A stretch of DNA of 64,000 nucleotides, taken from NCBI RefSeq assembly GCF_024502345.1, contig NZ_JALDNN010000001.1; one strand, written 5' to 3'. The stretch's first letter is position 1. The number at the start of each line of letters is the position of its first letter. The position numbers and the translations under genes are program-made. Below the pieces are notes generated by a model. The model saw nothing but the letters and a program-made list of their open reading frames with translations, was not told the origin of the DNA and did not search any database. Source of the stretch: Escherichia coli. Lineage in GTDB: Bacteria > Pseudomonadota > Gammaproteobacteria > Enterobacterales > Enterobacteriaceae. Of this stretch, positions 1 through 54,601 are shown in pieces.

Positions 1-62
1 CTCAGCCTGATGTTTTTCAATAAAGACATACTTCATTTCAGGCGCTTCGCGAAGTATGTCGC
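1..62 (-). mobile_element. IS3 element, internal segment (3' end of orfA onward); continues past the window edge; split by IS30
   Basis: Reverse complement of 1-62 continues the IS3 OrfA frame (..TYFAKRLK*) that is broken at 1284; GC dinucleotide at 61-62 is repeated at 1284-1285. Confidence 0.7.
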
Positions 63-1283
63 TGTAGATTCAATTGGTCAACGCAACAGTTATGTGAAAA
101 CATGGGGTTGCGGAGGTTTTTTGAATGAGACGAACATTTACAGCAGAGGAAAAAGCCTCTGTTTTTGAACTATGGAAGAACGGAACAGGCTTCAGTGAAA
201 TAGCGAATATCCTGGGTTCAAAACCCGGAACGATCTTCACTATGTTAAGGGATACTGGCGGCATAAAACCCCATGAGCGTAAGCGGGCTGTAGCTCACCT
301 GACACTGTCTGAGCGCGAGGAGATACGAGCTGGTTTGTCAGCCAAAATGAGCATTCGTGCGATAGCTACTGCGCTGAATCGCAGTCCTTCGACGATCTCA
401 CGTGAAGTTCAGCGTAATCGGGGCAGACGCTATTACAAAGCTGTTGATGCTAATAACCGAGCCAACAGAATGGCGAAAAGGCCAAAACCGTGCTTACTGG
501 ATCAAAATTTACCATTGCGAAAGCTTGTTCTGGAAAAGCTGGAGATGAAATGGTCTCCAGAGCAAATATCAGGATGGTTAAGGCGAACAAAACCACGTCA
601 AAAAACGCTGCGAATATCACCTGAGACAATTTATAAAACGCTGTACTTTCGTAGCCGTGAAGCGCTACACCACCTGAATATACAGCATCTGCGACGGTCG
701 CATAGCCTTCGCCATGGCAGGCGTCATACCCGCAAAGGCGAAAGAGGTACGATTAACATAGTGAACGGAACACCAATTCACGAACGTTCCCGAAATATCG
801 ATAACAGACGCTCTCTGGGGCATTGGGAGGGCGATTTAGTCTCAGGTACAAAAAACTCTCATATAGCCACACTTGTAGACCGAAAATCACGTTATACGAT
901 CATCCTTAGACTCAGGGGCAAAGATTCTGTCTCAGTAAATCAGGCTCTTACCGACAAATTCCTGAGTTTACCGTCAGAACTCAGAAAATCACTGACATGG
1001 GACAGAGGAATGGAACTGGCCAGACATCTAGAATTTACTGTCAGCACCGGCGTTAAAGTTTACTTCTGCGATCCTCAGAGTCCTTGGCAGCGGGGAACAA
1101 ATGAGAACACAAATGGGCTAATTCGGCAGTACTTTCCTAAAAAGACATGTCTTGCCCAATATACTCAACATGAACTAGATCTGGTTGCTGCTCAGCTAAA
1201 CAACAGACCGAGAAAGACACTGAAGTTCAAAACACCGAAAGAGATAATTGAAAGGGGTGTTGCATTGACAGATTGAATCTACA
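63..1283 (+). mobile_element. IS30, complete 1221-bp copy
   Basis: Starts TGTAGATTCAATTGGTCAACGC, ends GATTGAATCTACA (terminal inverted repeats); length 1221 bp; single 383-aa transposase ORF; flanked by 2-bp GC direct repeat. Confidence 0.9.
125..1276 (+). CDS. insI: IS30 transposase
   Basis: 383-aa ORF with N-terminal HTH and DDE transposase; matches IS30 InsI as I recall it. Confidence 0.93.
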   Translation: MRRTFTAEEKASVFELWKNGTGFSEIANILGSKPGTIFTMLRDTGGIKPHERKRAVAHLTLSEREEIRAGLSAKMSIRAIATALNRSPSTISREVQRNRGRRYYKAVDANNRANRMAKRPKPCLLDQNLPLRKLVLEKLEMKWSPEQISGWLRRTKPRQKTLRISPETIYKTLYFRSREALHHLNIQHLRRSHSLRHGRRHTRKGERGTINIVNGTPIHERSRNIDNRRSLGHWEGDLVSGTKNSHIATLVDRKSRYTIILRLRGKDSVSVNQALTDKFLSLPSELRKSLTWDRGMELARHLEFTVSTGVKVYFCDPQSPWQRGTNENTNGLIRQYFPKKTCLAQYTQHELDLVAAQLNNRPRKTLKFKTPKEIIERGVALTD

Positions 1284-1555
1284 GCGGCCTTTTGGAGGAT
1301 AGCCAGCTCTTCATCCCGTTCTGCCAGCTGGCGTTTGAGACGTGCAATCTCGGTAGACATCTCCAGTTCACGTTCAGAAGACGTCTGCTGATTTTGCTGT
1401 TTACTGCGCCAGTTGTAGAGCTGTGATTCATACAGGCTGAGTTCACGGGCTGCGGCAGTAACACCGATGCGTTCAGCAAGCTTCAGGGCTTCACTGCGAA
1501 ATTCAGGCGAATGCTGTTTACGGGGTTTTTTACTGGTTGATACTGTTTTTGTCAT
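1284..1555 (-). pseudogene. insE: IS3 OrfA (InsE-type), first ~91 codons; reading frame interrupted by IS30
   Basis: ATG at 1555; frame runs MTKTV..AILQKAA, then enters IS30 at 1283; the remaining codons resume at 62..1. Confidence 0.65.
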
Positions 1556-1620
1556 GTGAGTCACCTCTGACTGAGAGTTTACTCACTTAGCCGCGTGTCC
1601 ACTATTGCTGGGTAAGATCA
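1284..1620 (-). mobile_element. IS3 left-end segment (terminal repeat plus 5' part of orfA)
   Basis: Reverse complement of 1601-1620 is TGATCTTACCCAGCAATAG.., the IS3 terminus as I recall it; OrfA begins MTKTVSTSKKPRKQHSPEFRSEALKLAERIG. Confidence 0.75.
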
Positions 1621-2231
1621 TAGATGCTACGGATATCCATATCCAGAACTTCAGCAATCTGATATGGATTATAACCAGAAACCATATACCCCATTATGGT
1701 GAATTCCATCTGAGTTAATGTGTTACCTCTGGTAAATGATAAATAACGACCAATAAATAGTTGTCTGATCTTTTCATTGGCAACATCAAGACCATCATCA
1801 TTATATATGACAGCAGATATTGCTGAGTTGTGTTTTCGCCAGTAATTAGCTAACGATTGCATATTGCGGTCGCTGACTAAAACAATCCCCATGTCAGTAC
1901 TTGCAAGATAGTCAATCCAGTCTTTTTCAAGGAATAGACGTAAAAAACTTACTGAAAAATCGACAAAAATATATCCGCTTAATCTCGCATTGTGGTTTTT
2001 AGTTAAGATACCTTCTACCACACCACGATTAAAATATGAACTTTCTTCGGGCCACATACAAAAACACGAGTTTGCGCAGTACTGCAAACGCGGTGACTCT
2101 TCTGGCATTATTTGGCAATGCATTGAGCAACTATTGCATGTAAGACTTTTATAACGACTACAAAGCCCCATGTTAAGAACCTCCCTATCCGTATATAATT
2201 GCATAATTTCATTGGTGATTGATGATGTCAA
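1602..2231 (-). CDS. yqeH: LuxR-family (GerE-type HTH) transcriptional regulator, YqeH-like; last codons supplied by the IS3 terminus
   Basis: 209-aa ORF; C-terminal LuxR-type HTH (..GNTLTQMEFTIMGYMVSGYNPYQIAEVLDMDIRSIY); sits next to the yqeG remnant as in K-12; stop codon lies inside the IS3 end. Confidence 0.6.
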   Translation of the reverse strand: MTSSITNEIMQLYTDREVLNMGLCSRYKSLTCNSCSMHCQIMPEESPRLQYCANSCFCMWPEESSYFNRGVVEGILTKNHNARLSGYIFVDFSVSFLRLFLEKDWIDYLASTDMGIVLVSDRNMQSLANYWRKHNSAISAVIYNDDGLDVANEKIRQLFIGRYLSFTRGNTLTQMEFTIMGYMVSGYNPYQIAEVLDMDIRSIYDLTQQ

Positions 2232-2585
2232 TACACCATGATTTTGTAATTTTGCTGGGAAAAATTGCGATTAATCTGTATTTGCTATAATTCTGATTAA
2301 GACATTTTAAAATGCATTTCTCGTTATTAAATATGATTATGTTTCACTGATTTAATCTTACCTGGTTGAGGGTGGTTCAGATAACTATCTCATGGTATGA
2401 GAATATCTATATCGCAAATTGTTTTTGAATGACCAGAAGATATCTTGCGAATCTAAGTTATGCATCTTAAATGGTCTTATTTAAGATGTTCAGATCTCTT
2501 TGTGTGTTTAACTAACTGATAATACTAGGATATGATGAGAGAAGTGATAGGGCGGAATAATAACGAATGAACATTATGAAAACTG

Positions 2586-2620
2586 GAATGGTTCAAAATT
2601 GTAGCAATTTTGAACCATTC
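2586..2620 (-). terminator. Probable terminator hairpin downstream of the yqeG remnant
   Basis: Perfect 15-bp inverted repeat GAATGGTTCAAAATT / AATTTTGAACCATTC with 5-nt loop, directly after the yqeG stop, followed on the minus strand by a U-rich tract. Confidence 0.4.
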
Positions 2621-2630
2621 ACAATGGATA

Positions 2631-2865
2631 TCAGCTAAAGAACATTACCGATACGCACAGGATACCCACGATCAGCGTAATCAGATTTCCGATGGAACGC
2701 CAGGGTTTAAGCGCCGGGATCAGATACGTTGACAACGTAGGCATGATGAAAAGTATCATGGCAATGAGCGGGCCGCTGATCGCGTAAATCATCGAAATCG
2801 CGTTCGGGTTAATGCAACAAACAATGAAGGTGATCAGCGATACCAACATAATTGATAGTGCGCGG
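2631..2865 (-). pseudogene. yqeG: yqeG remnant: C-terminal ~77 codons of an HAAAP-family (SdaC/TdcC-like) transporter, truncated by IS903
   Basis: Frame ..GPLIAMILFIMPTLSTYLIPALKPWRSIGNLITLIVGILCVSVMFFS* aligns with the C-terminus of SdaC in this same window (..[51 protein letters not shown]); upstream part of the frame is IS903 sequence. Confidence 0.65.
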
Positions 2866-3922
2866 GGCTTTGTTGAATAAATCGAACTTTTGCTGAGTTG
2901 AAGGATCAGATCACGTATCTTCCCGACAACGCAGACCGTTCCGTGGCAAAGCAAAAGTTCAAAATCACCAACTGGCCCACCTACAATAAAGCCCTCATCA
3001 ACCGTGGCTCCATAACTTTCTGGCTGGATGATGAAGCTATTCAGGCCTGGTATGAGTCAGCAACACCTTCTTCACGAGGCAGACCTCAGCGCTATTCTGA
3101 CCTTGCCATCACGACTGTGCTGGTCATTAAACGCGTATTCAGGCTGACCCTGCGCGCTGCGCAGGGCTTTATTGATTCCATTTTTTCTCTGATGAACGTT
3201 CCGCTACGCTGCCCGGATTACAGCTGTGTCAGCAGGCGGGCAAAGTCGGTTAATGTCAGTTTCAAAACGCCCACCCGGGGTGAAATCGCACACCTGGTAA
3301 TTGATTCCACCGGGCTGAAGGTCTTCGGTGAAGGCGAGTGGAAAGTCAAAAAGCATGGCCAGGAACGCCGCCGTATCTGGCGTAAGCTGCATCTCGCCGT
3401 TGACAGTAAAACACATGAAATCATCTGCGCTGACCTGTCGCTGAACAACGTTACGGACTCAGAGGCCTTCCCCGGGTTAATCCGGCAAACCCACCGGAAA
3501 ATCAGGTCAGCCGCCGCCGATGGCGCTTACGATACCCGGCTATGTCACGATGAACTGCGGCGTAAGAAAATCAGCGCGCTTATCCCTCCCCGAAAAGGTG
3601 CGGGTTACTGGCCCGGTGAATATGCAGACCGTAACCGTGCAGTGGCTAATCAGCGAATGACCGGGAGTAATGCGCGGTGGAAATGGACAACAGATTACAA
3701 CCGTCGCTCGATAGCGGAAACGGCGATGTACCGGGTAAAACAGCTGTTCGGGGGTTCACTGACACTGCGTGACTACGATGGTCAGGTTGCAGAGGCTATG
3801 GCCCTGGTACGAGCGCTGAACAAAATGACGAAAGCAGGTATGCCTGAAAGCGTGCGTATTGCCTGAAAACACAACCCGCTACGGGGGAGACTTACCCGAA
3901 ATCTGATTTATTCAACAAAGCC
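2866..3922 (+). mobile_element. IS903-group (IS5 family) element, complete 1057 bp, no target-site duplication
   Basis: Left end GGCTTTGTTGAATAAATCG at 2866, inverse copy ending at 3922; exactly 1057 bp; flanks agtgcgcgg / cattcttct do not match, whereas IS903 normally makes a 9-bp duplication. Confidence 0.85.
2943..3866 (+). CDS. IS903-type DDE transposase (307 aa from a GTG start)
   Basis: ORF ..GLKVFGEGEWKVKKHGQERRRIWRKLHLAVD..DGAYDTR..SIAETAMYRVK; the track ORF begins at TTG 2898, but GTG 2943 gives 307 aa, which I recall as the IS903 transposase length. Confidence 0.8.
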   Translation: MAKQKFKITNWPTYNKALINRGSITFWLDDEAIQAWYESATPSSRGRPQRYSDLAITTVLVIKRVFRLTLRAAQGFIDSIFSLMNVPLRCPDYSCVSRRAKSVNVSFKTPTRGEIAHLVIDSTGLKVFGEGEWKVKKHGQERRRIWRKLHLAVDSKTHEIICADLSLNNVTDSEAFPGLIRQTHRKIRSAAADGAYDTRLCHDELRRKKISALIPPRKGAGYWPGEYADRNRAVANQRMTGSNARWKWTTDYNRRSIAETAMYRVKQLFGGSLTLRDYDGQVAEAMALVRALNKMTKAGMPESVRIA

Positions 3923-3940
3923 CATTCTTCTTACTTTTAT

Positions 3941-3966
3941 GACCCTGCCGCATGGCAGGGTTTTTT
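3941..3966 (+). terminator. Intrinsic terminator; probably the 3' terminator of the deleted upstream gene (kduD in K-12)
   Basis: GC stem CCCTGCC / GGCAGGG with 4-nt loop followed by TTTTTT, 20 bp after the IS903 end. Confidence 0.45.
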
Positions 3967-4135
3967 ATATCTGTAGATCATCATAATCCATATCATGGTT
4001 ATGAAATAATCCATATCAATTATCAATTAATGAACTTTATGAATTTTATCTGCTGTAAAATTAGGTGATTAATAATAATATCAATAATTCAACTTAATTT
4101 GAAAATTGGAATATCCATCACATAACGACATGTCG

Positions 4136-4170
4136 TAGCAATTTAATCCATATTTATGCTGTTTCCGACC
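4136..4170 (+). promoter_or_regulatory. araE promoter region with AraC half-site pair
   Basis: TAGCAATTTAATCCATA followed by TTTATGCTGTTTCCGAC resembles the AraC TAGCn7TCCATA motif, about 70 bp upstream of the araE start. Confidence 0.45.
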
Positions 4171-4234
4171 TGACACCTGTGTGAGTTGTTCACGTATTTT
4201 TTCACTATGTCTTACTCTCTGCTGGCAGGAAAAA

Positions 4235-5653
4235 ATGGTTACTATCAATACGGAATCTGCTTTAACGCCACGTTCTTTGCGGGATACGCGGCGTATGAAT
4301 ATGTTTGTTTCGGTAGCTGCTGCGGTCGCAGGATTGTTATTTGGTCTTGATATCGGCGTAATCGCCGGAGCGTTGCCGTTCATTACCGATCACTTTGTGC
4401 TGACCAGTCGTTTGCAGGAATGGGTGGTTAGTAGCATGATGCTCGGTGCAGCAATTGGTGCGCTGTTTAATGGTTGGCTGTCGTTCCGCCTGGGGCGTAA
4501 ATACAGCCTGATGGCGGGGGCCATCCTGTTTGTACTCGGTTCTATAGGGTCCGCTTTTGCGACCAGCGTAGAGATGTTAATCGCCGCTCGTGTGGTGCTG
4601 GGCATTGCTGTCGGGATCGCGTCTTACACCGCTCCTCTGTATCTTTCTGAAATGGCAAGTGAAAACGTTCGCGGTAAGATGATCAGTATGTACCAGTTGA
4701 TGGTCACACTCGGCATCGTGCTGGCGTTTTTATCCGATACAGCGTTCAGTTATAGCGGTAACTGGCGCGCAATGTTGGGGGTTCTTGCTTTACCAGCAGT
4801 TCTGCTGATTATTCTGGTGGTCTTCCTGCCAAATAGCCCGCGCTGGCTGGCGGAAAAGGGGCGTCATATTGAGGCGGAAGAAGTATTGCGTATGCTGCGC
4901 GATACGTCGGAAAAAGCGCGAGAAGAACTCAACGAAATTCGTGAAAGCCTGAAGTTAAAACAGGGCGGTTGGGCACTGTTTAAGATCAACCGTAACGTCC
5001 GTCGTGCTGTGTTTCTCGGTATGTTGTTGCAGGCGATGCAGCAGTTTACCGGTATGAACATCATCATGTACTACGCGCCGCGTATCTTCAAAATGGCGGG
5101 CTTTACGACCACAGAACAACAGATGATTGCGACTCTGGTCGTAGGGCTGACCTTTATGTTCGCCACCTTTATTGCGGTGTTTACGGTAGATAAAGCAGGG
5201 CGTAAACCGGCTCTGAAAATTGGTTTCAGCGTGATGGCGTTAGGCACTCTGGTGCTGGGCTATTGCCTGATGCAGTTTGATAACGGTACGGCTTCCAGTG
5301 GCTTGTCCTGGCTCTCTGTTGGCATGACGATGATGTGTATTGCCGGTTATGCGATGAGCGCCGCGCCAGTGGTGTGGATCCTGTGCTCTGAAATTCAGCC
5401 GCTGAAATGCCGCGATTTCGGTATTACCTGTTCGACCACCACGAACTGGGTGTCGAATATGATTATCGGCGCGACCTTCCTGACGCTGCTCGACAGCATT
5501 GGCGCTGCCGGTACGTTCTGGCTCTACACTGCGCTGAACATTGCGTTTGTGGGCATCACTTTCTGGCTCATTCCGGAAACCAAAAATGTCACGCTGGAAC
5601 ATATCGAACGCAAACTGATGGCAGGCGAGAAGTTGAGAAATATCGGCATCTGA
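4235..5653 (+). CDS. araE: Arabinose:H+ symporter (MFS sugar porter)
   Basis: 472 aa from ATG 4235 ([15 protein letters not shown]..); the track ORF starts earlier at GTG 4181. Confidence 0.93.
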
Positions 5654-5659
5654 TTTCAC

Positions 5660-5692
5660 GGGCCGGATGTGCTGTACATCCGGCCCTTTTTT
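5660..5692 (+). terminator. araE rho-independent terminator
   Basis: GGGCCGGATGT / ACATCCGGCCC hairpin followed by TTTTTT. Confidence 0.7.
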
Positions 5693-5781
5693 CGTTAATA
5701 GAGATCGGGCACTTGGCCGTTGAGGCGTTTGTCTCGTTCCTTATTCAGCCTTGTTGCGGTAACACACATCAGGAGAGAGGA

Positions 5782-6474
5782 ATGAAAACAATTGGTTTGC
5801 TGGGAGGAATGAGCTGGGAATCCACCATTCCTTACTATCGTTTGATAAATGAAGGCATTAAACAGCGGCTTGGTGGGCTTCACTCTGCGCAAGTGCTGCT
5901 ACATAGCGTCGATTTTCATGAAATAGAAGAGTGCCAGCGTCGCGGGGAATGGGATAAAACCGGGGACATTCTGGCTGAGGCGGCGCTTGGCTTACAGCGG
6001 GCGGGCGCAGAAGGTATTGTGTTATGTACCAATACGATGCATAAAGTGGCGGATGCCATTGAGTCACGTTGCACTCTGCCTTTCTTACACATTGCGGATG
6101 CCACCGGACGTGCAATTACCGGGGCCGGAATGACTCGTGTGGCGCTGCTGGGTACGCGTTACACCATGGAACAGGATTTTTATCGCGGGCGGCTGACGGA
6201 ACAATTTTCCATCAATTGTCTTATTCCTGAAGCGGATGAACGGGCGAAGATTAATCAGATTATTTTTGAAGAACTGTGTCTGGGGCAATTCACCGAAGCG
6301 TCACGCACTTATTATGCGCAAGTGATTGCTCGCCTGGCAGAACAGGGGGCGCAGGGTGTCATTTTTGGCTGCACAGAGATTGGTTTACTGGTGCCAGAAG
6401 AGCGCAGTGTTCTGCCTGTGTTTGATACTGCGGCGATCCATGCCGAGGATGCTGTCGCTTTTATGCTGTCGTAG
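5782..6474 (+). CDS. ygeA: Amino-acid racemase of the Asp/Glu racemase family
   Basis: 230 aa from ATG 5782 behind a GGAGAGAGG RBS; the track ORF 5407-6474 carries a spurious N-terminal extension overlapping araE. Confidence 0.85.
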
Positions 6475-7396
6475 CTGACGACAGAATAGCGTCAAGAGAA
6501 GTGACCAGTTTCGGTAATCCCGCTTGTAAATGCTCACTAAACGCCTGCACCAGCGCTGATGACGGGCGATGCAGAGGGCGGATCAGGCTGACGGTAAACG
6601 GAACCGCAATACTGAACCGCCGCACCACTAAACCGCTTGCCGCATAATCCAGTGCGGTGAGCGGGTTAACCACCGAAACACCTACCCCCGTCCGTACCAT
6701 TGCGCACACTGACGCGGCGCTGTGGGTTTCTACGATCATGCGTCGTTTAACCTGATGTTCAGTAAATAGCTGATCCAGCAACTGGCGATAGCTGTCAGTA
6801 CGGGAAAGGCTGATGTAGTTCTCACCCTGAAAATCATCCGGCGTTAATACCTTTTTTACCGCCAGCGGATGACCCGGAGGTAACACACACACTTCATCTA
6901 AAGAGAGTAATTCAGTACGTTCTGTTCCCGCAGGCGTATGGAGTGTCTCAGTGAGTCCTAAATCATGACGCTGTGCCGAGAGCCACTCTTCAAGTAGCGG
7001 TGATTCCTGGGGCACAATATTTAAGCTGACATCGGGATAACGTGCCAGAAAGGGTTGCAGGAGCTGCGGTAAAAAAGATTGCGAAAAGACCGGCAGGCAG
7101 GCAATAGACAGTTCTCCCTGGCGAAACTCGCGCAGACTTTCTGCGGCGCTGACAATGCGATCCAGTCCGTACCAGGATCGTTGCACTTCTTCAAACAGAC
7201 GCAGTCCTTGCACGGTAGGATGTAATCGTCCACGTACGCGCTCAAACAATTTCAGCCCGATCACCTTCTCAAAGCGCGCCAGTTCGCGGCTGACGGTTGG
7301 CTGTGAGGTGTGTAGCAGGTGTGCTGCCTCAGTCAGGCTTCCGGCGGTCATTACCGCATGAAAAATTTCAATATGACGTAAGTTAACGGCGGCCAT
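6461..7396 (-). CDS. lysR: LysR transcriptional activator of lysA
   Basis: 311 aa LTTR with N-terminal HTH; divergent from lysA. Confidence 0.93.
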
Positions 7397-7517
7397 TAGC
7401 GCTCTCTCGCAATCCGGTAATCCATATCATTTTTGCATAGACTCGACATAAATCGATATTTTTTATTCTTTTTATGATGTGGCGTAATCATAAAAAAGCA
7501 CTCATCTGGAGTTTGTT

Positions 7518-8780
7518 ATGCCACATTCACTGTTCAGCACCGATACCGATCTCACCGCCGAAAATCTGCTGCGTTTGCCCGCTGAATTTGGCTGCCCGGT
7601 GTGGGTCTACGATGCGCAAATTATTCGTCGGCAGATTGCAGCGCTGAAACAGTTTGATGTGGTGCGCTTTGCACAGAAAGCCTGTTCCAATATTCATATT
7701 TTGCGATTAATGCGTGAGCAGGGCGTGAAAGTGGATTCCGTCTCGTTAGGCGAAATAGAGCGTGCGTTGGCGGCGGGTTACAATCCGCAAACGCACCCCG
7801 ATGATATTGTTTTTACGGCAGATGTTATCGATCAGGCGACGCTTGAACGCGTCAGTGAATTGCAAATTCCGGTGAATGCGGGTTCTGTTGATATGCTCGA
7901 CCAACTGGGCCAGGTTTCGCCAGGGCATCGGGTATGGCTGCGCGTTAACCCGGGGTTTGGTCACGGACATAGCCAAAAAACCAATACCGGTGGCGAAAAC
8001 AGCAAGCACGGTATCTGGTACACCGATCTGCCCGCCGCACTGGACGTGATACAACGTCATCATCTGCAGCTGGTCGGCATTCACATGCACATTGGTTCTG
8101 GCGTTGATTATGCCCATCTGGAACAGGTGTGTGGTGCTATGGTACGTCAGGTCATCGAATTCGGTCAGGATTTACAGGCTATTTCTGCAGGCGGTGGGCT
8201 TTCTATTCCTTATCAACAGGGTGAAGAGGCGGTTGATACCGAGCATTATTATGGTCTGTGGAATGCCGCGCGTCAGCAAATCGCCCGCCATTTGGGCCAC
8301 CCTGTGAAACTGGAAATTGAACCGGGTCGCTTTCTGGTAGCGCAGTCTGGCGTGTTAATTACTCAGGTGCGGAGCGTCAAACAAATGGGTAGCCGCCACT
8401 TTGTGCTGGTTGATGCCGGGTTCAACGATCTGATGCGCCCGGCAATGTACGGTAGTTACCACCATATCAGTGCCCTGGCAGCTGATGGTCGTTCTCTGGA
8501 ACACGCGCCAACGGTGGAAACCGTCGTCGCCGGGCCATTATGTGAATCGGGCGATGTCTTTACCCAGCAGGAAGGGGGAAATGTTGAAACCCGCGCCTTG
8601 CCGGAAGTGAAGGCGGGTGATTATCTGGTACTGCATGATACAGGGGCATATGGCGCATCAATGTCATCCAACTACAACAGCCGTCCGCTGTTACCAGAAG
8701 TTCTGTTTGATAATGGTCAGGCGCGGTTGATTCGCCGTCGCCAGACCATCGAAGAATTACTGGCGCTGGAATTGCTTTAA
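7518..8780 (+). CDS. lysA: Diaminopimelate decarboxylase
   Basis: 420 aa; PLP-dependent fold-III decarboxylase. Confidence 0.95.
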   Translation: MPHSLFSTDTDLTAENLLRLPAEFGCPVWVYDAQIIRRQIAALKQFDVVRFAQKACSNIHILRLMREQGVKVDSVSLGEIERALAAGYNPQTHPDDIVFTADVIDQATLERVSELQIPVNAGSVDMLDQLGQVSPGHRVWLRVNPGFGHGHSQKTNTGGENSKHGIWYTDLPAALDVIQRHHLQLVGIHMHIGSGVDYAHLEQVCGAMVRQVIEFGQDLQAISAGGGLSIPYQQGEEAVDTEHYYGLWNAARQQIARHLGHPVKLEIEPGRFLVAQSGVLITQVRSVKQMGSRHFVLVDAGFNDLMRPAMYGSYHHISALAADGRSLEHAPTVETVVAGPLCESGDVFTQQEGGNVETRALPEVKAGDYLVLHDTGAYGASMSSNYNSRPLLPEVLFDNGQARLIRRRQTIEELLALELL

Positions 8781-8786
8781 CTGCGG

Positions 8787-9818
8787 TTAGTCGCTGGTTG
8801 CATGATGACTGGCCTCCAGCGACGGAGTTGACACTGAATGGCGACGTACCAGCGTCGGACTAAAGACATTAGTGATTTCCGGGAGAGGGCGATTATCCGC
8901 CAGCGCCAAAGCCAGTTCGGCAGCCTGGGTCGCCATCGTCACGATTGGGTAACGCACGGTGGTCAGGCGCGGGCGCACATAGCGTGACACCAGCACATCA
9001 TCAAAGCCAATTAACGAAATTTCGCCCGGTACATCAATACCATTATCATTGAGAACGCCCATCGCACCCGCCGCCATTGAATCGTTATAACAGGCTACCG
9101 CAGTGAAATTTCTTCCTCGTCCCAAAAGCTCGGTCATTGCCTGTTCGCCGCCGCTTTCGTCTGGTTCGCCAAATGTCACCAGCCGATCATTGGCCGGAAT
9201 ACCACTTTCAGCAAGGGCATCGTAATACCCTTGCAGACGATCTTCGGCGTCAGAAATAGAGTGGTTAGAGCACAGATAACCAATGCGGGTATGACCTTGC
9301 TGAATTAAATGACGCGTTGCCAGCCAGGCACCGTAACGATCGTCAAGAGCAATACAACGGTTTTCAAAGCCAGGCAGGATACGGTTGATCAGCACCATAC
9401 CGGGCATTTGTTTCATTAATGAGGCTAAATCGGCATCCGGGATCATTTTGGCATGGACGACCAACGCAGCACAGCGATGGCGGATCAGTTGCTCAATAGC
9501 CTGACGCTCTTTTTGTTCGTTGTGGTAACCGTTGCCAATCAATAAGAAATTACCGGTGTGATAAGCCACCTGTTCGACCGCTTTCACCATTGCACCGAAA
9601 AACGGATCGGAAACATCACCAACGACCAGACCGACCGTTTCAGTGGTCTGCTGCGCCAGCGCACGGGCGTTGGCGTTCGGGTGATAGCTAAGAGACTCCA
9701 TTGCACTATGCACAGCCAGCCGGGACGCTTCGCTGGCTTTGGGTGAATTATTAATGACGCGGGAAACGGTGGCGACTGAAACGCCTGCCAGTCGGGCTAC
9801 ATCCTTTATGGTCGCCAT
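8787..9818 (-). CDS. galR: Galactose repressor (LacI family)
   Basis: 343 aa, MATIKDVARLAGVSVATVSRVIN.. HTH. Confidence 0.95.
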   Translation of the reverse strand: MATIKDVARLAGVSVATVSRVINNSPKASEASRLAVHSAMESLSYHPNANARALAQQTTETVGLVVGDVSDPFFGAMVKAVEQVAYHTGNFLLIGNGYHNEQKERQAIEQLIRHRCAALVVHAKMIPDADLASLMKQMPGMVLINRILPGFENRCIALDDRYGAWLATRHLIQQGHTRIGYLCSNHSISDAEDRLQGYYDALAESGIPANDRLVTFGEPDESGGEQAMTELLGRGRNFTAVACYNDSMAAGAMGVLNDNGIDVPGEISLIGFDDVLVSRYVRPRLTTVRYPIVTMATQAAELALALADNRPLPEITNVFSPTLVRRHSVSTPSLEASHHATSD

Positions 9819-10031
9819 GAAAATACCTTAGTGGGTAAACGCTTACATTCTTTCAGTGTTACGGAAAACGCCCGTTGGTTCAAGGGGCGGCGTGTTTTCA
9901 TCGTGGGAATGTGAGCCAAACGCAAATAAGTAAGACAAAAAAAGAGATTGCAAACCTTTGGTTACACTTTGCGAAACGCTGTTGCGATTGACCGCTGGTG
10001 GCGTTTGGCTTCAGGTTGCTAAAGTGGTGAT

Positions 10032-10114
10032 CCCAGAGGTATTGATAGGTGAAGTCAACTTCGGGTTGAGCACATGAATTACACCAGCCTGCGCAGATGC
10101 GCAGGTTTTTTTTT
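10032..10114 (+). ncRNA. omrB: OmrB small RNA
   Basis: CCCAGAGGTATTGATAGGTGAAGTCAACTTCGGGTTGAGCACATGAATTACACCAGCCTGCGCAGATGCGCAGG followed by a T9 run. Confidence 0.9.
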
Positions 10115-10228
10115 GCCGGTCATCAAACTGTAACAGTAACCGACAATTTACACACCTCGTTGCATTTCCCTTCATTCCTTTGCGTTTTCTCGCTGGCGAA
10201 GAGTCGTCGTGCAGACCACAATCAAGAT

Positions 10229-10316
10229 CCCAGAGGTATTGATTGGTGAGATTATTCGGTACGCTCTTCGTACCCTGTCTCTTGCACCAACCTGCGCGGA
10301 TGCGCAGGTTTTTTTT
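10229..10316 (+). ncRNA. omrA: OmrA small RNA
   Basis: CCCAGAGGTATTGATTGGTGAGATTATTCGGTACGCTCTTCGTACCCTGTCTCTTGCACCAACCTGCGCGGATGCGCAGG followed by a T8 run; shares 5' and 3' ends with OmrB. Confidence 0.9.
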
Positions 10317-10382
10317 CGCACCTAATTTACTGTCGCTCGCGTTCTTTATCTCGTGTAATCTCCCTCCATTCGCTTTTACTGA

Positions 10383-13749
<3,367 letters not shown>

Positions 13750-35792: not shown

Positions 35793-35833
35793 GCCGGATG
35801 CGACGTACGAGTGTTACGCATGTCGCATCCGGC
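35793..35833. repeat. REP-type palindrome / bidirectional terminator between convergent recD and argA
   Basis: GCCGGATGCGAC..GTCGCATCCGGC near-perfect hairpin. Confidence 0.7.
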
Positions 35834-38689: not shown

Positions 38690-38735
38690 ATAGGAGACCA
38701 GAAACAAAAAAACACCCGTTAGGGTGTTCAATAAT

Positions 38736-38812
<77 letters not shown>

Positions 38813-38844
38813 TCACCGTACTGCTTTATTTCATTAAATTTGAT

Positions 38845-38921
<77 letters not shown>

Positions 38922-38954
38922 TCACCGTACTGCTTTACTTCATCAAATTTTAAT

Positions 38955-39031
<77 letters not shown>

Positions 39032-39239
39032 TCCGTGGATGCGCACTATACTCCGCTCGCGTTTTCATGCAACCTTTTTTTTACCCCGATCACGGATTTA
39101 GCATGATTTTGAACAAAAACAAACCACTAAAGCCTATTTTTTGTGCAAAATTTGCGTCAGGGAGAGGCTGCTCATTTCATTAAACGCGGCGGTTTGTTAT
39201 CTTCGTTGCGCCTTATTTTTTAACCTGAAGAAGAGAACA

Positions 39240-40337
39240 ATGAAAGGACGTTGGGTAAAGTACCTTCTTATGGGCACGGTTGTGGCAATGCTTGCCGCCT
39301 GCTCTTCCAAACCAACCGATCGCGGACAGCAATATAAAGACGGGAAATTTACCCAGCCTTTCTCTCTGGTGAACCAGCCAGATGCCGTTGGCGCGCCGAT
39401 TAACGCCGGTGATTTTGCCGAGCAAATTAACCATATCCGTAATTCGTCACCGCGTCTGTATGGCAACCAGAGTAATGTTTATAACGCGGTGCAAGAGTGG
39501 CTGCGCGCAGGCGGTGATACCCGCAATATGCGCCAGTTCGGCATTGATGCCTGGCAGATGGAAGGTGCCGACAACTATGGTAACGTGCAGTTTACAGGCT
39601 ATTACACGCCGGTAATTCAGGCGCGCCATACCCGCCATGGCGAGTTCCAGTATCCTATTTACCGTATGCCGCCAAAACGTGGTCGTCTGCCGTCTCGTGC
39701 GGAGATCTACGCGGGGGCATTGGGCGATAAATACATCCTCGCTTACAGCAACTCTCTGATGGATAACTTCATTATGGATGTGCAGGGTAGTGGGTATATC
39801 GACTTTGGTGATGGCAGTCCGCTTAACTTTTTCAGCTATGCAGGGAAAAACGGTCATGCCTATCGCAGCATTGGTAAGGTGCTGATCGACCGTGGCGAAG
39901 TGAAAAAAGAAGATATGTCGATGCAGGCGATTCGTCATTGGGGCGAAACACACAGTGAAGCCGAGGTTCGCGAGCTGCTGGAACAGAACCCGTCTTTCGT
40001 CTTCTTTAAACCGCAATCTTTTGCACCGGTGAAAGGGGCAAGTGCGGTGCCGCTGGTTGGCCGTGCTTCTGTTGCCTCCGATCGTTCAATTATTCCGCCA
40101 GGTACTACCTTGCTGGCAGAAGTGCCGCTGCTGGATAATAACGGCAAATTTAACGGTCAGTACGAATTGCGTCTGATGGTGGCGTTGGATGTCGGGGGCG
40201 CAATCAAAGGCCAACACTTCGATATCTATCAAGGGATCGGGCCGGAAGCCGGACACCGCGCAGGTTGGTACAACCACTATGGACGTGTCTGGGTGCTGAA
40301 AACCGCCCCGGGCGCAGGTAACGTCTTTAGCGGCTGA
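39240..40337 (+). CDS. mltA: Membrane-bound lytic murein transglycosylase A
   Basis: 365 aa from ATG 39240; lipobox LAACSS. Confidence 0.93.
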   Translation: MKGRWVKYLLMGTVVAMLAACSSKPTDRGQQYKDGKFTQPFSLVNQPDAVGAPINAGDFAEQINHIRNSSPRLYGNQSNVYNAVQEWLRAGGDTRNMRQFGIDAWQMEGADNYGNVQFTGYYTPVIQARHTRHGEFQYPIYRMPPKRGRLPSRAEIYAGALGDKYILAYSNSLMDNFIMDVQGSGYIDFGDGSPLNFFSYAGKNGHAYRSIGKVLIDRGEVKKEDMSMQAIRHWGETHSEAEVRELLEQNPSFVFFKPQSFAPVKGASAVPLVGRASVASDRSIIPPGTTLLAEVPLLDNNGKFNGQYELRLMVALDVGGAIKGQHFDIYQGIGPEAGHRAGWYNHYGRVWVLKTAPGAGNVFSG

Positions 40338-40339
40338 TG

Positions 40340-40570
40340 TGATATTCTGTATGCCGTTTTTACGGATATGACAGGGTGAGGGGTAACCTCACATCCTGAT
40401 TATTGACTAAGTGCGCGTTGTTCATGCCGGATGCGGCGTGAACGCCTTATCCGGCCCACAAATCATGCAAATCCAAAATATTGCAGGAGTTATGTAGGCC
40501 TGATAAGCGTAGCGCATCAGGCATTTATGCGTTTAGGGTGAGGGAAAACCTCACCCTTTTTAATTCTGAG
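40340..40570. repeat. BIME / REP cluster between mltA and tcdA
   Basis: Several imperfect palindromic units (GCCGGATGCGGCGTGAACGCCTTATCCGGCC; AGGCCTGATAAGCGTAGCGCATCAGGC; GGGTGAGGG..CCTCACCC). Confidence 0.75.
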
Positions 40571-40575
40571 GTGCT

Positions 40576-41382
40576 ATGTCTGTGGTAATTAGTGATGCAT
40601 GGCGTCAGCGTTTTGGTGGCACAGCGCGTCTGTATGGTGAAAAAGCGTTGCAACTGTTTGCTGACGCGCATATTTGTGTGGTTGGTATCGGTGGTGTCGG
40701 TTCCTGGGCGGCGGAAGCGCTGGCGCGCACGGGGATTGGCGCAATCACGCTTATCGATATGGATGATGTGTGCGTCACCAATACCAATCGGCAAATTCAT
40801 GCCCTGCGCGATAACGTTGGGCTGGCAAAAGCGGAAGTCATGGCGGAACGTATTCGCCAGATTAACCCGGAGTGCCGTGTAACGGTGGTGGATGATTTCG
40901 TGACGCCGGATAACGTAGCGCAGCATATGAGCGTGGGTTATTCGTACGTGATTGATGCCATTGATAGTGTACGGCCCAAAGCGGCGCTGATTGCTTATTG
41001 TCGGCGCAATAAAATCCCGCTGGTCACGACCGGTGGCGCGGGTGGGCAGATTGACCCAACGCAGATTCAGGTTACCGATCTGGCGAAAACGATTCAGGAC
41101 CCGCTGGCGGCGAAGTTGCGCGAGCGCCTGAAAAGCGATTTTGGCGTAGTGAAAAACAGTAAAGGTAAGCTCGGCGTGGATTGCGTGTTTTCTACTGAAG
41201 CGCTGGTGTACCCGCAGTCAGACGGTACGGTGTGTGCGATGAAAGCCACGGCAGAAGGGCCGAAGCGGATGGATTGTGCATCTGGATTTGGCGCGGCAAC
41301 GATGGTGACCGCCACCTTTGGGTTTGTTGCGGTTTCTCATGCGCTGAAGAAGATGATGGCGAAAGCGGCGCGTCAGGGTTAA
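40576..41382 (+). CDS. tcdA: tRNA threonylcarbamoyladenosine dehydratase (ThiF/MoeB-type E1-like)
   Basis: 268 aa; GIGGVGS nucleotide-binding motif. Confidence 0.9.
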   Translation: MSVVISDAWRQRFGGTARLYGEKALQLFADAHICVVGIGGVGSWAAEALARTGIGAITLIDMDDVCVTNTNRQIHALRDNVGLAKAEVMAERIRQINPECRVTVVDDFVTPDNVAQHMSVGYSYVIDAIDSVRPKAALIAYCRRNKIPLVTTGGAGGQIDPTQIQVTDLAKTIQDPLAAKLRERLKSDFGVVKNSKGKLGVDCVFSTEALVYPQSDGTVCAMKATAEGPKRMDCASGFGAATMVTATFGFVAVSHALKKMMAKAARQG

Positions 41383-41387
41383 ACAAT

Positions 41388-41424
41388 CAGGTCGGATGCG
41401 ACGCGAACGTCTTATCCGACCTGG
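41388..41424. repeat. REP element
   Basis: CAGGTCGGATGCGACGCGAACGTCTTATCCGACCTGG palindrome. Confidence 0.7.
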
Positions 41425-48959: not shown

Positions 48960-49055
48960 TGCAATATAGCCGGATAATATTGCTTATCCGGCTAACCACT
49001 CTTGCTTGTTCAGGCCCGGTAGCCGGAGCGACCGGGCATCACATCAGGGAGTAAT
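48960..49055. repeat. REP-like palindromes between fucK and fucI
   Basis: AGCCGGATAA..TTATCCGGCT and GGCCCGGTAGCCGGAGCGACCGGGC inverted repeats. Confidence 0.45.
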
Positions 49056-54571: not shown

Positions 54572-54601
54572 GCCGGATACGACGTTTGCGGCGTATCCGG
54601 C
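54572..54601. repeat. REP element between convergent fucO and xni
   Basis: GCCGGATACGACGTTTGCGGCGTATCCGGC palindrome. Confidence 0.7.

Follow-up and report, generated by a model that had tools for sequence, protein, structure and literature searches.

Of the bacterial interspersed mosaic elements (BIMEs) and other arrangements of repetitive extragenic palindromes (REPs), BIME-1 is the one in which one Y and one Z1 REP surround a long conserved L linker, often with a site for integration host factor (IHF), in a single copy of ~140 bp (PMC3333891, PMC1187871). Its presence or absence among isolates was already reported in 1997, as relayed by PMC1187871. We analyzed a window of 64,000 nucleotides of Escherichia coli DNA (contig NZ_JALDNN010000001.1) and identified, from its sequence, the repeat block in the spacer between mltA and tcdA (40340-40570) as one BIME-1, also called RIP or RIB, a non-coding and non-autonomous repeat of ~140 bp. 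The element is ordinary and already known, and the interest lies in its footprint: it stands between two copies of the terminator hairpin that belongs to the locus. We are fairly confident that BIME-1 inserted at this hairpin and duplicated it, that the insertion is old and that it has since been precisely lost in about half of E. coli.

The window element resembles a described BIME-1 in that its Y and Z1 are inverse with their heads facing the L linker, in that it is a single extragenic copy of ~140 bp at the 3' end of a gene, and in that it is present or absent among isolates; it differs by a GTGG in place of GTAG, by two substitutions in the IHF core and by a right end without the last 12 nt. 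A second relative is the REPIN, mobilised by REP-associated tyrosine transposases (RAYT/TnpA-REP); two inverted REPs and their spacer form its unit of gain and loss, and single REPs are decaying remnants (PMC3337134), a picture that also fits the hairpins at recD/argA and fucO/xni in the same window. REPIN spread, however, is attributed to transposition of the IS200/IS605 type without direct target repeats (PMC3333891), whereas here a whole-hairpin repeat of 16-30 nt flanks the element. One review describes REPs as lacking the signatures of miniature inverted-repeat transposable elements (MITEs) (PMC3184786). Like a MITE the present element is short, non-coding and multi-copy, with imperfect terminal inverted repeats and flanking direct repeats, but these flanking repeats are of variable length and follow the target hairpin. 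DDE transposases make target duplications of 2-14 bp, and we know of no parent insertion sequence (IS) with BIME-1 ends.

All coordinates are positions in the window and refer to the plus strand unless stated (Table 1). The spacer extends for 238 bp between the end of mltA at 40337 and the start of tcdA at 40576, both on the plus strand, and the anatomy computed from it comprises four palindromes, two REPs inside and two copies of the local terminator hairpin outside. The original prediction had placed a BIME/REP cluster of at least three REP-like palindromes here, with further single hairpins elsewhere in the window. Every palindrome it named is present where it was placed, and its BIME label is correct and can be sharpened to BIME-1, that is Y, L linker and inverted Z1 in a single copy. 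As for the number of REPs, a consensus search with blastn-short assigned only two palindromes to REP classes, Y (40425-40456) and Z1 (40494-40523); the outer two matched no class and are the copies of the terminator hairpin. A search pattern derived from the Y, Z1 and Z2 consensus strings gave at least 120 exact matches in metagenome contigs.

Table 1. Coordinates of the mltA-tcdA spacer, its flanking genes and the isolated REP-derived hairpins of the window.
Feature	Position	Strand	Details
mltA coding sequence	39240..40337	+	Open reading frame ending at 40337; annotated mltA in matching E. coli records; start placed via the K-12 mltA length of 1098 nt
Left terminator-hairpin copy	40373..40395	+	AGGGTGAGG-GGTAA-CCTCAC-ATC; direct repeat; without T run; last 3 nt diverged
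BIME-1 left end motif	40396..40424	+	CTGATTATTGACTAAGTGCGCGTTGTTCA; family consensus cagATTGcTgACAAaGTGCgCtTTGTTca (33 loci)
Y-type REP	40425..40459	-	TGCCGGATGCGGCGTGAACGCCTTATCCGGCCCAC; read in the convention with GTAG first; 32/32 to Y consensus, E=9e-14
L linker, 34 nt, with IHF-like site	40460..40493	+	ATCCAAAATATTG as putative IHF site; Rfam ES036 match
Z1-type REP, inverted relative to Y	40494..40523	+	GTAGGCCTGATAAGCGTAGCGCATCAGGCA; GTAG intact; 30/30 to Z1 consensus, E=1e-12
BIME-1 right end motif, truncated	40524..40534	+	TTTATGCGTTT; family-terminal GTCATCAGTCTC missing; family consensus aTTTTGCGTTTGtCAtCAgtctc
Right hairpin copy with T run	40535..40561	+	AGGGTGAGG-GAAAA-CCTCACCCT, then TTTT; ends 14 nt before the tcdA ATG
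tcdA coding sequence	40576..41382	+	Open reading frame; annotation of matching records
Y-like REP derivative, convergent tcdA/csdE	41388..41424	+	41391-41420 23/26 to Y, E=0.005; -27.7 kcal/mol; internal mismatch
Perfect 18-bp palindrome, recD/argA	35793..35833		Two REP 'tail' arms, GCCGGATGCGAC / GTCGCATCCGGC; -34.2 kcal/mol
REP-derived hairpin, fucO/xni	54572..54601		-22.2 kcal/mol; remnant of a decayed BIME-1-like doublet
Short REP-foot hairpin, fucK/fucI	48969..48992		GCCGGATAA-TATTG-CTTATCCGGC; both arms of 'head' type

When the inner 155 bp of the spacer were compared with 5,426 complete E. coli genomes, the best match in genomes without a local copy was the fepA-entD spacer. Its BIME-1 is 88.5% identical to window positions 40398-40534 (137 nt), and homology over this interval sets the repeat unit at ~137 bp, which reaches ~27-29 nt leftward of the Y REP and 11 nt rightward of the Z1 REP. 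A scan of metagenome contigs for the Y-L-Z1 pattern returned 111 usable instances at 33 distinct loci, and from these loci we derived family consensus sequences for the left end (cagATTGcTgACAAaGTGCgCtTTGTTca), the right end (aTTTTGCGTTTGtCAtCAgtctc) and the linker (AAAAtCgTGCAAATTCAATATATTGCAg). The two ends are imperfect inverted repeats, with 11/15 positions matching between CAGATTGCTGACAAA and the reverse complement of the right end, GAGACTGATGACAAA.

Both REPs of the window element carry the stem mismatch GATGCG opposite CTTATC, and their GTAG/CTAC heads point inward. The tetranucleotide is intact in Z1 but reads GTGG in the window's Y (CCCAC on the plus strand), where K-12, O157:H7, E. 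albertii and other outgroups have GTAG (CCTAC on the plus strand). Measured against the 33-locus consensus the left end motif is complete and the final 12 nt of the right one are missing. In the IHF-like core, ATCCAAAATATTG, there are two mismatches to WATCAANNNNTTR, compared with one in the family consensus ATTCAATATATTG and in 27 of the 33 other copies. By these features the window copy is slightly decayed. K-12 carries a BIME-1 at the identical mltA-tcdA position with 99% identity, making this a known element at a known place.

The linker also matches the Rfam small RNA (sRNA) family RF02751 ES036 (CssrF) at 40459-40501, with 46.5 bits against a gathering score of 37.6. The same model scored above its gathering threshold in the linkers of 10/10 other BIME-1 loci tested (11/11 with the window). 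Since ES036 matches every BIME-1 linker tested, it marks a dispersed repeat and no specific sRNA gene here, and we rejected a genuine sRNA gene at mltA-tcdA; of practical use is the recognition that this 'sRNA' family is the BIME-1 linker. As RNA, the whole spacer is predicted to fold into extensive structure (-94.4 kcal/mol, z = -5.9 relative to shuffled controls). Pairing is possible between the left end motif GTTCATGCCG and the central part of the Y REP, CGGCGTGAAC (window 40420-40445), and also, across the linker, between the inner arms of Y and Z1; the predicted minimum-energy folds contain these pairings in place of the two separate REP hairpins.

The outer palindromes, AGGGTGAGGGGTAACCTCAC (40373-40392) and AGGGTGAGGGAAAACCTCAC (40535-40554), are direct repeats 162 bp apart. 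As full hairpins (40373-40395, 40535-40557) they bear no resemblance to Y, Z1 or Z2, and the motif occurs nowhere else in the window, its four matches being these two sites on both strands (0.24 expected). The left copy folds at -14.7 kcal/mol and the right at -17.6 kcal/mol (z = -4.6). Only the right copy has the completed stem and T run of an intrinsic terminator and is detected by a terminator scan, with 9 pairs and the T run; the left copy lacks the T run. The two copies agree at 20/20 positions in one divergent Escherichia genome. Counting ATC, the three diverged bases that close the left copy, the duplication spans the whole 23-nt stem-loop. We more likely see in ATC this diverged end than filler between hairpin and element, because other loci are without filler and because the left copies of E69 and Kosakonia, introduced below, differ at the same three positions. 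We also considered GGGTGAGG-N5-CCTCAC as a new dispersed repeat and rejected it: the window holds only two copies, at this locus other genera conserve just one, and the hairpins at other BIME-1 loci are all different.

Across the 5,426 complete E. coli genomes we observed two states of the locus. The spacer is complete, hereafter filled, in 2,754 genomes, and in nearly all of the remainder the locus is shorter by exactly 162 bp and has one hairpin; a 1.5-kb query across the locus was at least 80% covered in 5,375 genomes. The empty site reads ...GACAGGGTGAGGGGTAACCTCACCCTTTTTAATTCTGAGGTGCTATG, with the single-hairpin stretch GGGTGAGGGGTAACCTCACCCTTTTT, so that hairpin and T run lie directly before the ribosome-binding site of tcdA. 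The filled allele thus equals the empty allele plus BIME-1 and a second hairpin copy, and it is the left copy that is missing from empty sites. Identical MltA and TcdA variants (WP_000678646.1 with WP_000117728.1) occur with both alleles.

That half of E. coli is without the element while its flanking proteins are the same argues against an important role, and we regard BIME-1 today as mostly passenger DNA in the region 3' of mltA and 5' of tcdA. Because the left hairpin has no T run, mltA transcripts should run through this T-less hairpin and the two REP stem-loops of BIME-1 and end at the second hairpin. The family is known for REP stem-loops that can attenuate transcription and stabilise upstream mRNA, and for a linker bound by IHF (reviewed in PMC1187871, PMC2817692 and PMC3184786). 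By analogy, the REP stem-loops here may shield upstream RNA against 3' exonucleases, and IHF may bind to the linker.

An alternative to passenger DNA is that hairpin, BIME-1 and hairpin form one selected regulatory unit, for example a tandem terminator or a leader attenuator that tunes tcdA and binds IHF. We consider this unlikely. The terminator adjoins the ribosome-binding site of tcdA in all genera, the folding of the whole spacer is far better than that of shuffled controls, and family members bind IHF as cited in PMC3333891 and PMC2817692. A conserved TGTGnTAnnCT after the mltA stop codon is in addition a possible extended -10 element. Yet the flanking proteins are identical in the half of E. 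coli that does without the element, the element itself has decayed in its GTAG, its IHF core and its right end, and a two-hexamer promoter scan found no sigma-70-type promoter in the spacer. The TGTGnTAnnCT motif, here TGTGATATTCT (40338-40350), lies directly 3' of the mltA stop codon and is kept across many enterobacterial genera even where the downstream hairpin differs. Judged by its sequence it could be an extended -10 promoter for tcdA, in which case the terminator hairpin, and BIME-1 in filled alleles, would lie in the tcdA leader.

To establish the direction of change we compared the locus across 80 species-representative genomes, a set without E. fergusonii and other Escherichia species. 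The filled outgroups that we observed are E. albertii and two genomes labelled E. coli with flanks that are 7-8% divergent (SCPM-O-B-8794 and E69). They share with E. coli the right junction TTTATGCGTTT/AGGGTGAGGGATAACCTCACCC and the truncated right end. Because E. albertii and the divergent Escherichia have the same junctions, the insertion is old and took place before the split of E. coli and E. albertii. More distant genomes, namely Citrobacter amalonaticus S646, Phytobacter massiliensis, Salmonella enterica subsp. diarizonae, Lelliottia, Leclercia and an Enterobacter, have one GGGTGAGG...CCTCACCC hairpin with a T run and no BIME. Read from these alignments, the single hairpin is the ancestral state of the locus, and the empty sites within E. 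coli are secondary.

At least four empty-site haplotypes were seen, and they retain traces of the filled allele. In one, the 3' arm and T run are intact and the loop is GGTAA, a variant seen elsewhere exclusively in left copies of filled E. coli alleles. A second is identical to the right copy of an ESDR8-type filled allele, down to a T-run region that is one base shorter, and two further haplotypes match right copies of the K-12 type or of the ancestral type. These are the products expected of crossovers at different points within the repeat, and their distinctness argues against one deletion spread by recombination. In a neighbour-joining tree of 1,263 flanking positions the filled and empty alleles are interspersed. 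It therefore appears likely from the sequences that BIME-1 was deleted precisely in E. coli several times independently, a claim we put no more strongly since the tree is weakly resolved, with few differences, and the region recombines.

The opposite direction, in which the empty site would be the ancestral state of E. coli and the filled allele a recent insertion or import that is still spreading, seems improbable to us. It draws on the single hairpin of the more distant genera, on the known presence and absence of BIME-1 among isolates (PMC1187871) and on free recombination in E. coli. It is at odds with the outgroups, since all three sampled Escherichia outgroups are filled, with the same junctions and truncated right end, and with the empty classes, whose left-copy-private loop variant or right-copy variants mark them as crossover products rather than as ancestry.

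The comparison with other genera also bears on what the outer palindromes are. Four GC-rich palindromes within 230 bp, two of them genuine REPs, could suggest that at least three palindromic units, all of the REP family, are clustered in the spacer as a BIME-2 or an atypical BIME. We find this very improbable, as the outer palindromes are unlike Y, Z1 and Z2, are direct rather than alternating repeats, occur in the window only at this locus and equal the conserved single terminator hairpin of genera without a BIME, and as the linker is of the long L type and not one of the S/s/l/r linkers of BIME-2.

The same footprint recurs at other BIME-1 loci. We observed a direct repeat of 16-30 nt against both element ends (within 5 nt) in 11/33 loci, a count that becomes 13 if mltA-tcdA and a second allele of one locus are included. 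When left and right flanks were paired from different loci as a control, 2/1,056 pairs were positive, and both were two alleles of one locus. Almost all flanking repeats fold as hairpins and span the stem-loop nearly foot to foot; examples are AAACGCCGGAGCAATCCGGCGTT (twice) and ACGGGTGGCGTTGCCACCCG / ACGGGTGGTGTTACCACCCG. They are locus-specific, and their length is not fixed but follows the size of the hairpin. A stable hairpin (folding energy <= -8 kcal/mol) adjoins at least one element end at 27/33 loci, compared with 20% in windows 58-90 nt away (Mann-Whitney p = 6e-7).

Empty sites were found at two further loci. At pitA-uspB 1,940 genomes are filled, and the rest are without 173 bp and have the single hairpin AAAACGAGCGGGTCAGTTTACTGGCCCGCTTTTTTT. 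At ysgA-metE the filled state was seen in a non-coli Escherichia contig; full coverage of this query was reached by no E. coli genome, and most lack 171 bp and have a single hairpin. That the flanking hairpins are terminators carried by BIME-1 itself, as their position next to element ends at 27/33 loci might imply, is hardly credible, given that their sequences vary by locus, match only between the two sides of one locus (11/33 versus 2/1,056 across loci) and persist as one copy in empty sites.

How such a footprint could arise is suggested by the position of the element. BIME-1 sits right at the intrinsic terminator hairpin between mltA and tcdA, and we infer that the hairpin was duplicated when the element inserted; this would have left a T-less hairpin on the mltA side and, on the tcdA side, one with its T run that ends 14 nt short of the start codon. 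The most economical reading, to which we give about an even chance, is integration where the terminator stem-loop has its feet, the two cuts being offset by one palindrome length and then filled in. The hairpin duplication would follow exactly if both strands were cut where an extruded cruciform has its junction, because the two feet are adjacent there. This is unlike the prediction of the single-strand, repeat-free mechanism proposed for the transposases of REP-associated tyrosine transposase (RAYT) type. Insertion free of repeats is indeed not what we found: hairpin repeats stand at both ends at 11-13/33 loci, and empty sites keep one copy. No RAYT gene was found in the window.

For the loss of the element, the duplicated hairpins probably serve as substrates of precise deletion, by recombination or replication slippage between the 20-23-nt copies, which would have happened several times independently. 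Extended to the family, BIME-1s would insert at the base of intrinsic-terminator hairpins and copy the entire stem-loop, foot to foot, with a duplication length of 16-30 nt set by the target, and the resulting hairpins would enable frequent precise loss. We advance this generalization tentatively and would sooner doubt than assume it. If it holds, the homology of the duplicated hairpins would explain why BIME-1s are the most strain-variable REP structures.

Several points weigh against insertion with hairpin duplication followed by repeated loss. REPs have been linked to only one transposase, and enzymes of its family work through single-stranded intermediates without leaving direct repeats (PMC3333891), so that either another activity is responsible or the mechanism is unlike the IS608 model. 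Duplication of a hairpin at insertion is, to our knowledge, without a known enzyme. The flank tree has few differences and the flanks recombine, which leaves room for a single deletion spread by recombination. The window copy itself has two mismatches in its IHF-like site where the family consensus has one, and GTGG for GTAG in Y; termination, RNA stabilisation and IHF binding are all expectations carried over from what is known of the family.

A further complication comes from Kosakonia sp. S29, which we list alongside Phytobacter diazotrophicus. At the same locus (1770-2000 of its locus sequence) it has a decayed hairpin copy, CAGATTTTTGACAAAG, REPs of Kosakonia type, TTGTCAGCAATATCA and an intact hairpin. 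The spacer thus combines BIME-1 end motifs and a hairpin duplication with different REPs inside, and its structure implies that the insertion may be much older than Escherichia or that the target was hit twice independently. If the proposed mode of integration holds, this Kosakonia frame with its own REPs would indicate a recurrent target site or an outer frame that outlasted its REPs.

In the accessible literature, which excluded the key primary BIME papers, we found no mention of a BIME-1 between duplicated target terminator hairpins, and with those papers outside our coverage we do not claim the footprint as new. That it is both undescribed and mechanistically meaningful is possible but rather doubtful. 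The BIME-1 by itself changes nothing. How REPs and BIMEs spread is still unsettled, and in the accessible literature we found no demonstration of in vivo transposition by a REP-associated transposase. To this question the duplication of the whole target hairpin at a third or more of BIME-1 sites, together with empty sites at three loci, offers a testable signature of insertion, and the footprint also supplies a simple mechanism of precise excision.

We scanned the window for palindromes with REP-type feet (GYCKGAT...ATCMGRC) by pattern and estimated the expectation by first-order Markov resampling. Seven such palindromes were found where 0.12 were expected: the two REPs of BIME-1, four isolated hairpins and one at 5662-5684 that was absent from the original prediction. 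The last has REP-type feet and reads GCCGGATGTGCTGTACATCCGGC followed by CTTTTTT, which is terminator-like.

Binding by TnpA-REP requires the stem mismatch GATGCG opposite CTTATC, and GTAG is conserved 5' of the palindrome foot (PMC3333891). The four isolated hairpins had been called REP-type, which is apt as to descent but does not extend to the consensus, as none has GTAG, three of the four have no stem mismatch and only 41391-41420 matches a class. Judged by sequence they are REP fossils that resemble bidirectional terminators and not active members of the family, and a practical consequence is that several 'terminator' hairpins at convergent gene ends are fossils of REP doublets. The Y-like hairpin between tcdA and csdE keeps the GATGCG/CTTATC asymmetry, with compensatory foot changes (GTCGG/CCGAC) and CCAG in place of GTAG; it is fixed, without length variants, in 5,425 genomes. 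In the other three (35793-35833, 48969-48992 and 54572-54601) only the foot heptamers are REP-like, and the palindromes are perfect or near-perfect without a stem mismatch.

Loss of a doublet's centre has been proposed as the origin of long palindromic REP singlets (PMC3337134), and longer alleles are present at two of these loci. The recD/argA locus is 20 bp longer in 4/24 evenly spaced rows of the match ranking (roughly 13-17% of genomes), and 732/5425 genomes fall into the matching identity band of 90-95%. In the long allele, taken from one genome, the extra 20 bp restore a Z2-like REP, TGCCTGATGCGACGCATGTGGGTCTTATCATGCCTAT, next to the distal arm, which makes the window allele a REP doublet without its centre. 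At fucO/xni, 4/16 evenly spaced rows, or about a quarter of genomes, have a locus that is 50 bp longer. These additional 50 bp are made up, in LF82, of a REP, the L-like linker GTGCATGAAATTCAATGTGTTGATAA and a distal arm, and the window allele is a deletion between ATCCGGC(A) repeats.

No length polymorphism of the fucK/fucI hairpin was found among 5,421 genomes. The same spacer has a second palindrome, GCCCGGTAGCCGGAGCGACCGGGC (49014-49037), with feet that resemble the GCCCGGTAAGCG...CCGGG palindromes of Phytobacter and Kosakonia spacers and not E. coli REPs.

Elsewhere in the window, the IS elements named in the original prediction find support in positions 1-12000, which match 8,601 records including 5,925 plasmid places and to which chromosomes align in three pieces with 87-88% coverage. 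This pattern of plasmid-rich matches and divided chromosomal alignment indicates IS-like multi-copy segments. For the searched stretches of window 1-42000 (1.5-22 kb) the best identity to complete E. coli genomes is 98.9-99.3%, and the 301-bp spacer region is 100% identical in some. The window may derive from Shigella or from a lineage missing among these genomes. The only long direct repeat of the window lies at 38734-39061 and consists of three tandem tRNA genes on the minus strand, metZ, metW and metV in K-12.

Finally, the mltA-tcdA spacer of Enterobacteriaceae bacterium UBA5654 is 639 bp long and contains about five tandem copies of a unit of ~120 bp (about 1340-1980 of its locus sequence). 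Each unit joins the last mltA codons, GGTAACGTGTTTAGCGGCTGA, to a CCCTCTCCC...GGGAGAGGG palindrome; the gene end has here been duplicated repeatedly along with its hairpin.

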